29,797 nucleotides of DNA, taken from IMG/VR virus record IMGVR_UViG_2671180378_000015; one strand, written 5' to 3'. Positions 2,067 through 8,834 of the stretch are shown piece after piece. Made by a program: the position numbers and the translations under genes. Each line of letters begins with the position of its first letter. Position 1 is the first letter of the stretch. This DNA comes from a virus. Taxonomy: Duplodnaviria; Heunggongvirae; Uroviricota; Caudoviricetes. The notes below the pieces were generated by a model, which had not been told where the DNA came from, did not search any database, and saw nothing but the letters and a program-made list of their open reading frames with translations.

Positions 2067-2187
2067 ATTTTCAACGCGTTTGAAGTTCTGGACGGTGCCG
2101 GAATAGAATCAAAAATACTTAAGTAGCGCGCAGGGATAAGAGGGATGGTCCCTTAAAGGGGAGAGCTAATTATCCGGAAGGATTCTG

Positions 2188-2439
2188 ATGATGAACATCG
2201 AAGAACTGCGTAAAATTTTTTGTGAAGATGGCCTCTATGCTGTGTGCGTTGAAAATGGAAATCTTGTTAGTCATTACCGCATTATGTGTTTGCGAAAGAA
2301 TGGGGCTGCGTTAATTAATTTTGTGGATGCTCGGGTCACGGACGGATTTATCTTGCGCGAAGGTGAGTTTGTCACTTCATTACAGGCATTGAAAGAGATC
2401 GGAATAAAAGCTGGCTTTTCTGCTTTTTCAGGAGAATAA
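2188..2439 (+). CDS. rem: Rem-like small prophage protein (83 aa), unknown function
   Basis: ORF track MMNIEELRKIFCEDGLYAVCVENG...; position between hokD and ydfU as in Qin. Confidence 0.65.
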   Translation: MMNIEELRKIFCEDGLYAVCVENGNLVSHYRIMCLRKNGAALINFVDARVTDGFILREGEFVTSLQALKEIGIKAGFSAFSGE

Positions 2440-2505
2440 ACTCATCTACAATCTTGCGCGGGGCTGAACTCCCGCTGAGTAACACCGTGCCACCGGAGAA
2501 AACCG

Positions 2506-2784
2506 ATGGCACGCAACGCAAAATATTACAATTCTGATAATTCGCCCGTTCTTGCCTGCACGCACGGGCGGTATTCTCACGCATTCAAGTCTGAATGGTT
2601 CCAGCACCCTCCATGCACTGCAGAACAGGCCGAATGGCTGATTCATTCTTACCGCAGGCGCGGGTTCGAGGTTAAGAAAGCTCTCAGTCTCGACTATCGG
2701 CACTGGATAATCTCTGTCAGGCTGCCTTATTCCGAACGCCCACCACGTGCGTCCCGCACTTTCCAGCAACGGATCTGGAGGTAA
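2506..2784 (+). CDS. Hypothetical protein (92 aa), translationally coupled to ydfU
   Basis: ATG 2506 preceded by GGAGaaaacc; its stop TAA 2782-2784 lies 1 nt before the GTG start of ydfU and its last codons contain the ydfU RBS (GGAGG 2777-2781). Confidence 0.5.
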   Translation: MARNAKYYNSDNSPVLACTHGRYSHAFKSEWFQHPPCTAEQAEWLIHSYRRRGFEVKKALSLDYRHWIISVRLPYSERPPRASRTFQQRIWR

Positions 2785-2785
2785 C

Positions 2786-3835
2786 GTGCGGGTATTACTT
2801 AGACCTGTTCTGGTGCCTGAGCTTGGGCTGGTGGTCCTTAAGCCGGGCCGTGAATCCATACAGATATTTCATAATCCTCGAGTGCTGGTGGAACCGGAAC
2901 CAAAAAGCATGCGTAATCTGCCATCCGGAGTCGTTCCTGCCGTTCGCCAGCCGCTGGCGGAAGACAAAACATTGCTGCCGTTTTTTAGTAACGAACGGGT
3001 GATTCGTGCTGCTGGCGGCGTTGGCGCATTGTCCGACTGGCTATTACGTCATGTTACATCCTGCCAGTGGCCTAATGGCGATTACCATCACACTGAAACA
3101 GTCATTCACCGTTATGGTACCGGCGCAATGGTGTTGTGCTGGCACTGCGACAACCAACTGCGTGACCAGACATCGGAATCACTGGAGCTGCTTGCTCAAC
3201 AAAATCTGACAGCATGGGTGATTGACGTCATCCGTCACGCAATAAGCGGTACGCAGGAGCGGGAATTATCTTTGGCTGAATTATCCTGGTGGGCGGTCTG
3301 CAATCAGGTGGTGGATGCACTACCTGAGGCTGTATCGCGTCGTTCGCTGGGATTACCAGCGGAAAAAATCTGCTCGGTGTACCGCGAAAGCGACATCGTA
3401 CCGGGAGAGCAGACCGCCACCAGCATATTGAAACAACGCACAAAAAATCTTGCACCGTTGCCTTACGCCCACCAGCAACAAAAATCACCACAGGAAAAGA
3501 CGGTGGTAAGCATCACCGTTGATCCAGAGTCTCCGGAATCTTTCATGAAGCTGCCTAAACGTCGCCGCTGGGTTAAGGAGAAATACACACGTTGGGTTAA
3601 GACACAGCCGTGTGCTTGCTGCGGTATGCCAGCCGACGATCCGCATCATCTGATTGGTCACGGGCAGGGCGGAATGGGAACAAAAGCACATGATCTCTTT
3701 GTGTTGCCTTTGTGCAGAAAGCATCACAACGAGCTGCATACGGATACAGTGGCATTTGAAGATAAGTATGGCTCCCAACTGGAGCTGATATTTCGTTTTA
3801 TCGATCGCGCGCTGGCAATTGGCGTACTGGCGTAA
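2786..3835 (+). CDS. ydfU: YdfU, DUF968-type protein with C-terminal Cys/His-rich HNH-like motif (349 aa from GTG)
   Basis: Open frame 2747-3835; preferred start GTG 2786 with GGAGG 5 nt upstream; C-terminus CACCGMPADDPHHLIGHGQGG...LPLCRKHHNELH resembles an HNH/His-Me finger. Confidence 0.7.
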   Translation: MRVLLRPVLVPELGLVVLKPGRESIQIFHNPRVLVEPEPKSMRNLPSGVVPAVRQPLAEDKTLLPFFSNERVIRAAGGVGALSDWLLRHVTSCQWPNGDYHHTETVIHRYGTGAMVLCWHCDNQLRDQTSESLELLAQQNLTAWVIDVIRHAISGTQERELSLAELSWWAVCNQVVDALPEAVSRRSLGLPAEKICSVYRESDIVPGEQTATSILKQRTKNLAPLPYAHQQQKSPQEKTVVSITVDPESPESFMKLPKRRRWVKEKYTRWVKTQPCACCGMPADDPHHLIGHGQGGMGTKAHDLFVLPLCRKHHNELHTDTVAFEDKYGSQLELIFRFIDRALAIGVLA

Positions 3836-5368: not shown

Positions 5369-5535
5369 GATTGCGTCGGTTTGAAGAACAGACGATATAC
5401 GAAGTAGTTTACTAAAGCAGTTCTCATTTCAGGTGTTATTCACTTATTCCTTCTTTGAGTCTCTCCAATTAAGTACGAAGTCGTTTCTGTTATGCAAACC
5501 ATTTATGCCGAAAGGCTCAAGTTAAGGAATGTAGA

Positions 5536-5751
5536 ATGTCAAATAAAATGACTGGTTTAGTAAAATGGTTTAACGCTGATAAAGGTTTCGGCTTTATTTC
5601 TCCTGTTGATGGTAGTAAAGATGTGTTTGTGCATTTTTCTGCGATTCAGAATGATAATTATCGAACCTTATTTGAAGGTCAAAAGGTTACCTTCTCTATA
5701 GAGAGAGGTGCTAAAGGTCCTGCAGCAGCAAATGTCATCATTACTGATTAA
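5536..5751 (+). CDS. cspB: CspB cold-shock protein (71 aa)
   Basis: ORF track [38 protein letters not shown]...; RNP1-like KGFGFI motif. Confidence 0.9.
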
Positions 5752-6032
5752 AATTCATCGCTCGTCTGTATACGATAACGAAGAAGGCTGATGCCTGAGT
5801 AGAGATACGGACAGAGTAGTGAATATTGGATCTCTTTAATAAAAAGTAAGGAGGTCCAATACATGAAACAATGGCTAGCATATTTGGCAAAATCTTAATC
5901 AGGAAAAGTATGCTAACCATTGTGGTGAAGTGCAGGTTTGCTGCATGAATAGTTTCACAGCAGAAGCTAACTGCTGGCATCGCAAAACAAAGTGCGTAAG
6001 TGGATGACTCCCACAAAAAGCACCACAATCTC

Positions 6033-8271: not shown

Positions 8272-8422
8272 GGTGTTCTGGTTTGTTACAAATTTATCTG
8301 AAGCAGTCATTGTTATAATTTTATTATTTGTACCTCTTGAGATTTCCTTGTTGGTTTTTCTCTCTGATATTTTTTTTCGGACCATTCTGCCCAAGGGCTA
8401 ATTTCTTCAAAAGGTAATAATT

Positions 8423-8635
8423 ATGTCTAACAAAATGACTGGTTTAGTGAAATGGTTTAACCCTGAAAAAGGTTTTGGTTTCATCACGCCGAAAGATGGC
8501 AGCAAAGATGTGTTTGTCCATTTCTCAGCAATTCAGAGCAACGATTTCAAAACATTAACTGAGAATCAGGAAGTTGAATTTGGTATTGAGAACGGACCTA
8601 AAGGTCCTGCCGCTGTTCATGTAGTGGCGCTTTGA
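8423..8635 (+). CDS. cspI: CspI cold-shock protein (70 aa)
   Basis: ORF track [45 protein letters not shown]... Confidence 0.9.
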
Positions 8636-8834
8636 GGTAGACAATATTACAAACCATATTCACTTTAGATGCCCGTGTTGTCATGGTTCCCAGTATAGAA
8701 CATCATCTTTTGATGTTTCTGACATGAATCCTTTCGGGGCAAAATGTATCTTTTGTAAATCAATGATGATTACATTTGATAATATTTCACAATACTTAAA
8801 TGCCAGCCGTCTGTCGTTGGATTTAAAAAAGTGA
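8625..8834 (+). other. Open frame encoding a second Cys-rich zinc-ribbon-like peptide lacking a canonical start (possible non-canonical start or decayed paralog)
   Basis: Frame reads ...HFRCPCCHGSQYRTSSFDVSDMNPFGAKCIFCKSMMITFDNISQYLNASRLSLDLKK stop 8832-8834; first ATG (8724) lies after the first Cys cluster; strong terminator immediately downstream. Confidence 0.3.

Follow-up and report, generated by a model that had tools for sequence, protein, structure and literature searches.

Does the short open reading frame (ORF) directly in front of ydfU in the Qin cryptic prophage of E. coli K-12 represent a gene and, if so, is its product a dedicated partner of the YdfU protein? The ORF, called orf92 after its 92 codons, is located in a stretch of 29,797 nucleotides (nt), the Caudoviricetes record IMGVR_UViG_2671180378_000015 of IMG/VR, which as a whole is referred to as the window. 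Genes of the Qin prophage follow one another here in the order relB-relE-hokD-rem, orf92 region, ydfU, ydfT (a Q-type antiterminator gene), cspF and cspB. The term nin region denotes the early-right operon, which is flanked by the replication genes on one side and by the late-gene activator Q on the other. A first-pass annotation of the same DNA had regarded orf92 as an unannotated gene translationally coupled to ydfU and had suggested that a small partner and a nuclease-like protein might together form a recombination, anti-restriction or immunity-type module. Our analysis makes it likely that orf92 is a real nin-region gene of the PHROG 1212 family which is positioned for coupling to ydfU, yet does not encode a dedicated partner of YdfU.

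orf92 is a genuine and conserved protein-coding phage gene. About 240 loci were collected from IMG/VR and GTDB genomes, comprising 101 distinct nucleotide versions of orf92, all of which have kept the ATG and are free of internal stops; the sole difference in length is an in-frame indel of 6 nt. The median pairwise ratio of nonsynonymous to synonymous substitution (dN/dS) among these versions is about 0.2, with marked differences along the gene. In detail, codons 1–26 have a dN/dS of 0.65 and nucleotide diversities of 0.198, 0.197 and 0.226 at the first, second and third codon position, codons 27–66 a dN/dS of 0.17 (0.088, 0.091 and 0.291) and codons 67–92 a dN/dS of 0.08 (0.025, 0.025 and 0.198). 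Third-position periodicity is absent from the first 26 codons and strong in the core formed by codons 27–92, where synonymous divergence amounts to 0.28–0.49. Since synonymous sites still vary in the codons of the C-terminal 26 residues, the conservation of this part reflects selection on the amino acids and not only on the nucleotides. Each of the 101 variants has stops in the other two sense frames and in two of the antisense frames, and an antisense ORF of 137 codons (2446–2859) was rejected because it is open in just 21 of them.

It could be argued that orf92 is an artefact, namely a chance ORF, the remnant of a pseudogene or the 5' end of ydfU, the latter starting at a GTG at 2747 or being reached by a frameshift. 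The absence of orf92 from the curated MG1655 annotation would agree with this, as would the ydfU frame, which in most loci stays open over the 75 nt preceding 2786. However, the GTG at 2747 is found in just 52 of 240 loci and 166 loci lack any in-frame upstream start, substitutions between 2706 and 2781 track the orf92 frame (with the same diversities as given for codons 67–92), all 101 variants are intact and the protein matches a family profile (see below). These conservation tests rule out the artefact, to which we attach next to no probability. The rarity of the GTG at 2747, together with the agreement of RefSeq, places the ydfU start at 2786, which is also the start used in genomes annotated with the Prokaryotic Genome Annotation Pipeline (PGAP). 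The first-pass annotation had left room for a ydfU start at 2747 and for an orf92 without conservation at the protein level; both are contradicted by these data. A programmed frameshift from orf92 into ydfU was also rejected, as the substitutions keep the orf92 frame up to its stop and no signal was seen; by eye, a run of repeated bases of the kind common at frameshift sites is not evident at the junction, and no formal scan for frameshift signals was made.

The geometry of the two genes is as previously described and can be read directly in the DNA. orf92 has a Shine-Dalgarno sequence of its own (GGAG, 2495–2498, 7 nt 5' of the ATG), a single base (C2785) separates its TAA from the GTG of ydfU, and the Shine-Dalgarno sequence of ydfU (GGAGG, 2777–2781, with the GTG 4 nt further 3') is made by the final two sense codons of orf92, TGG AGG. 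Across loci the junction reads TGGAGGTAAYGTG without any variation in 231 of 236 cases. What has to be revised is the term unannotated, which holds for the curated MG1655 record NC_000913.3, where the interval between ydfU and rem is empty, but not for PGAP-annotated genomes, in which orf92 is listed as a 279-nt 'hypothetical protein' gene (WP_012304870.1 in K-12 derivatives, WP_010917803.1 in O157:H7). orf92 is absent from the curated K-12 annotation, yet already called by PGAP and included in PHROGs. The practical consequence is an annotation fix, as purifying selection has conserved the gene missing from the curated record and PGAP calls it in thousands of E. coli genomes.

Profile searches with hidden Markov models, which had been proposed for both proteins, assigned YdfU to DUF968 (see below) and orf92 to PHROG 1212 (E = 1.7e-35), a family listed as being of unknown function. 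Residues 27–92 of orf92 correspond to positions 1–66 of the 66-position profile, i.e. to its full length, whereas scans of orf92 and of 34 family members with Pfam, NCBIfam and PADLOC returned no family. A word-indexed search retrieved 129 close homologs of 90–92 residues, all of them from Escherichia or Shigella, and an exhaustive profile search yielded 75 cluster representatives, mostly of 66 residues, which align to orf92 residues 28–92. Family members were found in Gifsy-1, Gifsy-2, SPN3UB, mEp237, PY54 and phiES15 as well as in phages of Klebsiella, Edwardsiella, Hafnia, Erwinia and Pantoea. Judged by these sequence matches, the small-protein family has a wide distribution among the temperate phages of Enterobacterales. 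In an alignment of 34 sequences (66-residue numbering) F6 and Y23 are invariant and D37, L47, P48 and W65 occur in at least 90%; all of these residues are present in orf92 as F32, Y49, D63, L73, P74 and W91. The 66-residue core remains recognisable down to about 30–40% identity across genera and gene contexts.

As codons 2–27 contain no in-frame ATG, GTG or TTG, the Escherichia form lacks the ancestral start and uses the ATG 26 codons upstream. In the AlphaFold model these first 26 codons are disordered, with a predicted local distance difference test score (pLDDT) below 50, and the core adopts a beta-alpha-beta-beta arrangement with a short C-terminal helix (pLDDT about 87). The protein is small and basic, and its core is of the alpha/beta type. 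When PDB sequences were searched with the family profile no match was obtained, and literature searches with the orf92 protein accessions, PHROG 1212 and 'orf QD1' returned nothing.

Several family members allow a closer comparison. STM1021.1n of Gifsy-2, mEp237_051, gp17 of phiES15 and ORF47 of PY54 share the conserved F, Y, D, LP and W with orf92 and, like orf92, precede Q in the early-right operon and have the same orientation, their stop overlapping or abutting the next start. The layout of orf92-ydfU-ydfT(Q), with the small gene upstream of Q, is repeated in Gifsy-2, mEp237, phiES15 and an Erwinia locus. Qin-type orf92 differs from the members of about 66 residues in its 26-residue extension, its structured leader and a promoter-like site, and in being followed by a DUF968 gene, where the other members have RusA, NinG or YbcO. 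The only notable match in a structure library was Orf QD1 of phage N15 (Foldseek E = 1.7e-3, 30% identity over 77 columns), a weak match to an uncharacterised protein of 142 residues; some phage records label orf92 homologs 'putative orf QD1'. NinE of lambda and DLP12 (ybcN-ninE-ybcO-rusA) occupies the same slot between a NinB/YbcN-type gene and the nuclease genes and shows the same stop/start overlap. Homology to NinE was nevertheless rejected, with a probability of 0.07% in hhalign against DLP12 NinE and no match to Pfam NinE (PF05322) in orf92 or the 34 members.

The second part of the question is whether orf92 belongs to YdfU. A dedicated module, in which the small protein is a cofactor, inhibitor, immunity or antitoxin-like partner of YdfU that is made first and in a fixed ratio, is suggested by the Qin-type lineage itself, where DUF968 begins one base past the orf92 stop in 231 of the 236 loci with enough downstream DNA and where the junction is invariant. 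The order of a small upstream and a larger downstream gene resembles many toxin-antitoxin pairs, most of the distant family members lie directly upstream of a DNA nuclease gene, and there is one natural in-frame orf92::ydfU fusion (P0189, 438 residues, from a loss of 13 nt at the junction), which may be a real mutant or an assembly error.

The distant loci, however, show a different picture. Of the 83 analysed, 82 have a downstream ORF long enough to classify, which encodes RusA in 58 loci, NinG in eight, a C5 cytosine methylase in four, NinX in four, YbcO in two, DUF968 in two and other proteins in four. Altogether the downstream genes of the small-protein family fall into nine groups, six of them having a Pfam family, and the upstream neighbours of the distant members are equally diverse. 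The nucleases encoded downstream are unrelated in both fold and family (RusA versus His-Me finger), and NinX and the C5 methylase are not nucleases at all. A YdfU-like DUF968 gene, in turn, was found in 174 phage records (in 173 covering at least 80% of the query), of which just 20, the closest ones with at least 75% identity, also contain an orf92 match at E <= 1e-3, while 154 do not; in SfV and mEp460, the two loci inspected, the YdfU homolog is 58% identical and preceded by a KilA-N-type gene. In addition, orf92 and ydfU alleles reassort freely, as illustrated by two loci whose orf92 and ydfU are 99% and 91% (L023) or 92% and 99% (L034) identical to those of the window. RusA and lambda Rap/NinG are known to function without a small partner of this kind, and DLP12 carries ninE in the slot. 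Finally, no PADLOC defence model matches orf92, and YdfU shows only a non-significant match to PglZ (E 0.078).

From the diverse neighbours, and from the DUF968 genes without a detectable small gene, we conclude that the orf92-ydfU pairing is a lineage-specific linkage within a mosaic operon and not a conserved two-component system; a dedicated module is accordingly considered unlikely. The distant loci mostly show an overlap of 4 nt with the next gene (GTGA or ATGA), and because such tight start/stop overlaps are the usual style of these operons, coupling alone does not prove a functional pair. Of the module proposed by the first-pass annotation, the adjacency thus stands for the Qin-type elements, in which co-occurrence is near-constant, but it is lost in more distant relatives, where other genes follow or orf92 is not detected. 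The anti-restriction or immunity-type pair is not borne out, with no defence, toxin or immunity model matching in PADLOC or NCBIfam.

Similarity blocks shared with E. coli genomes recurrently end at about 2489 (just before orf92), at 3536 and at 3835. In some genomes the shared part reaches no further than about 3536, so that the YdfU C-terminus, which contains the HNH motif, is exchanged separately.

For YdfU itself, an HNH/His-Me finger had been recognised in the Cys/His-rich segment, and this assignment is right but already in the literature. Pfam DUF968 (PF06147) matches residues 160–346 with 256.8 bits (cut-off 27.8, E 1.4e-76), the related family HNHc_6 (PF16784) reaches 26.3 bits on the same stretch, just under its cut-off of 26.6, RecA_dep_nuc gives a weak Pfam match and phrog_96, 'HNH endonuclease', matches at E = 2.8e-171. 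The crystal structure of YbcO (3g27) has been used to anchor group 7 of the His-Me finger superfamily, which comprises DUF968 and DUF1364 and in which YdfU is named (PMC5714182), and DUF968 proteins of Gram-positive phages had earlier been described as fusions of an Orf-like and an HNH domain (PMC4118853). The YbcO/DUF1364 and DUF968 group shares with YdfU the motif and the neighbours RusA and Q, and residues 275–320 of YdfU align with the nuclease motif of YbcO (residues 18–64) at 33% identity over 46 columns. All seven Cys and His residues of the motif (listed in Table 1), which corresponds to the metal- and zinc-binding motif of the beta-beta-alpha-metal finger, are invariant in 25 homologs, although this alignment is shallow (77–100% identity). 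In contrast to YbcO, YdfU has 349 residues with an N-terminal region of about 160 residues, for which no Pfam family was found, and its role as a nuclease is a prediction. The AlphaFold model of YdfU is too poor to judge the beta-beta-alpha-metal fold from it (mean pLDDT 48.5, about 75–85 in residues 310–349 only), and the Foldseek search with this model was uninformative, its best match being the HNH enzyme McrA (E = 0.044); a PDB sequence search gave a chance-level match only and the NCBIfam scan none. A second Cys/His cluster at residues 93–123 (3062–3154; CQWPNGDYHH...LCWHCDNQL) hints at a degenerate duplicated finger. A duplicated HNH motif in the N-terminal region was nevertheless rejected, as the alignment is in register but not significant (E = 0.33) and Pfam gives no match.

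Table 1. Position of orf92, ydfU and the associated sequence and RNA elements in the window
Feature	Position	Strand	Description
Promoter-like site	2425–2452	+	TTTTCA, 16-nt spacer, TACAAT (-10 at 2447–2452); from a consensus scan
Leader hairpin 1	2458–2475	+	GCGGGG-CUGAAC-UCCCGC; predicted as minimum-free-energy fold
Leader hairpin 2	2486–2513	+	Predicted to enclose GGAG (2495–2498) and ATG (2506–2508) of orf92
orf92	2506–2784	+	92 codons, ATG start, TAA stop (2782–2784), intact
orf92 N-terminal extension	2506–2583	+	Codons 1–26; Escherichia lineage only, missing from relatives of about 66 residues
orf92 conserved core	2584–2784	+	Codons 27–92 and stop; PHROG 1212 family
Junction hairpin	2753–2792	+	orf92 codons 83–87 predicted to pair with Shine-Dalgarno sequence and GTG (2786–2788) of ydfU; RNA fold
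ydfU	2786–3835	+	349 codons, GTG start; DUF968/His-Me finger protein
YdfU Cys/His motif	3608–3745	+	Residues 275–320; C276, C279, H287, H288, C310, H314, H318

The layout of the junction (stop and start 1 nt apart, ydfU Shine-Dalgarno sequence inside orf92) is the one expected for coupling, as had been noted before. It shares with the classical cases of translational coupling in phage and bacterial operons the 1-nt spacing, the internal Shine-Dalgarno sequence, a weak GTG start and a predicted hairpin that would mask the start; it differs from them in that the hairpin lacks support from covariation and that coupling is deduced here from sequence alone. In the predicted fold, 2753–2759 pair with 2786–2792 (the GTG and the next four bases) and 2760–2766 with 2775–2781 (the Shine-Dalgarno sequence). 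The same pairing is predicted in all 26 sequence variants, with free energies from -10 to -21 kcal/mol, which is consistent with coupling by unfolding but falls short of proof.

The leader upstream of orf92 contains further elements, which constitute a small new observation. The DNA in front of it varies between loci: some have a gene resembling rem there, others an intrinsic terminator or DNA unrelated to these. Even so, at least four unrelated contexts retain a -10-like hexamer (TACAAT, GACAAT or TATACT) shortly before hairpin 1, which starts 5–10 nt 3' of the hexamer across loci; this suggests that the promoter-like site may function as a promoter. Hairpin 1 occurs with at least five types of stem, all of which pair (GCGGGG/TCCCGC, GCCAG/CTGGC, GTCAG/CTGAC, GCAGGG/CCCTGY and AAAATGG/CCATTTT), and its CTGAAC loop is conserved. 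The RNA from 2456 to 2530 folds with -26.5 kcal/mol (z = -3.2). In hairpin 2 the outer stem of six pairs is paired in 24 of 24 distinct sequences, one pair alternating between C-G, U-G and U-A; the covariation is modest, and the 3' arm doubles as coding sequence. No Rfam family was found for the leader.

The rem gene (2188–2439) matches PHROG 340, a family of unknown function. Since rem is missing in many loci, where the hokD terminator directly precedes the orf92 leader, it behaves like a separate insertable cassette.

The region has also come up in work on transcription termination, in which ydfU was listed as one of those genes that have the strongest zones of Rho-dependent termination upstream (PMC9160355). 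The primers used there for quantitative reverse-transcription PCR map to 3160–3316 of the window. From the RNA length given there (1200 nt) it follows that transcription was assumed to start near 2117, the site of the rem promoter. Primer positions and RNA length together place the termination zone within 2117–3160, an interval that contains orf92. The published zone 'upstream of ydfU', until now taken as intergenic or untranslated RNA, thus includes an ORF whose start is predicted to be masked by structure. The orf92 RNA is C-rich and G-poor, with a GC skew of -0.12 to -0.30 over 2480–2790. K-12 may translate orf92 poorly under laboratory conditions, and the amount of transcription that extends into ydfU and the Q gene could depend on the state of orf92 translation.

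These observations raise the possibility that orf92 is merely a leader ORF, i.e. that in Escherichia its translation as such gates ydfU and Q by coupling and Rho polarity, the peptide being dispensable. The conserved hairpin that would occlude the orf92 start region, the predicted occlusion of the ydfU start region by orf92 codons, the C-rich, G-poor RNA within the interval of the reported termination zone and the first 26 codons, which are almost unconstrained, would all fit such a role. A pure leader ORF would, however, not be expected to show the strong purifying selection on the amino acids of codons 27–92 (dN/dS 0.08–0.17, with ample synonymous change), nor the persistence of the 66-residue core at about 30–40% identity across genera and in differing gene contexts, nor the confident small-domain fold predicted for this core. 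For these reasons the leader ORF is disfavoured and rated as quite improbable.

We therefore prefer to regard orf92 as a nin-region gene with a functional protein product, placed such that ydfU may be coupled to it, and propose the following scenario. In the Qin-type lineage an accessory cassette (relBE-hokD-rem, or the intrinsic terminator alone) would have been inserted such that orf92 is the first cistron behind it, and in this position orf92 would have gained the promoter-like sequence, the structured leader and a new ATG 26 codons 5' of the ancestral start; the resulting extension is presumably translated, its sequence being almost unconstrained. As the ribosome-binding site of ydfU lies inside orf92 and is predicted to pair with codons 83–87, synthesis of YdfU most likely depends on orf92 translation, in that ribosomes reaching the end of orf92 would unfold the hairpin and reinitiate after termination. 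The same ribosomes would cover the C-rich, G-poor RNA and could limit Rho-dependent termination upstream of ydfU, which would in turn influence read-through to ydfU and the Q gene ydfT.

Several points weigh against this reading. The promoter-like site matches the consensus only weakly (9 of 12 positions) and such matches are no commoner than in shuffled sequence. For the junction hairpin, compensatory changes were not found among the 26 variants, and the 121-nt junction context folds no better than shuffled sequence (z = -0.04). Translation of orf92 in K-12 is a step that we infer, and Rho-dependent termination at this place would fit poor translation under laboratory conditions. Moreover, a gene for a DNA nuclease (RusA, NinG, YbcO or DUF968) lies directly downstream in 70 of the 82 classified distant loci, and a functional tie between the family and nucleases is therefore possible; as 58 of these 70 loci belong to one closely related group, the nuclease neighbourhood is a lead rather than a result.

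As regards the biochemical role, our best guess is that orf92 encodes a nucleic-acid-binding accessory factor of the phage gene set for recombination and DNA processing, and that it is neither an obligate subunit nor an inhibitor or immunity protein of YdfU. A more far-reaching proposal, which in its two parts together we hold to be doubtful, is that the family acts as an accessory factor of phage nucleases and that, separately, the leader hairpin is a new cis-acting RNA signal. In the former case the family of about 66 residues could be made in a fixed ratio with whichever RusA, NinG/Rap, YbcO or DUF968 is present and could modulate the targeting or activity of DNA-branch nucleases. In the latter, the covarying hairpin with the CUGAAC loop, following a -10-like element, might control read-through to Q in Qin-type prophages.

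None of this overturns the current understanding of lambdoid nin regions. It does draw attention to a family of small proteins without a Pfam entry which in most loci is encoded directly before Holliday-junction or branch nuclease genes, and this position makes the family a reasonable candidate for experimental follow-up.

Some minor observations were made in the course of the analysis. In Erwinia tracheiphila (L090, 4004–4204) a 66-residue homolog with 42% identity is followed at 1-nt spacing by an apparently frameshifted C5 cytosine methylase gene, after which come NinG and Q. The Escherichia prophage module, with an orf92 91% and a ydfU 98.6% identical to those of the window, is also present on a contig assigned to a metagenome-assembled genome of Veillonella parvula (L086, GTDB contig JAGZPX010000007.1), which is most likely mis-binned. 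Three proteins of 607 residues (P0190, P0191 and P0193) combine the Pfam domains of DUF968 and antiterminator Q and look like fusions of ydfU with the Q gene, which may be real mutants or assembly errors. Finally, Rfam detects the cspA thermoregulator twice in the window, at 5375–5767 (161.6 bits, overlapping cspB) and at 8277–8662 (112.8 bits).

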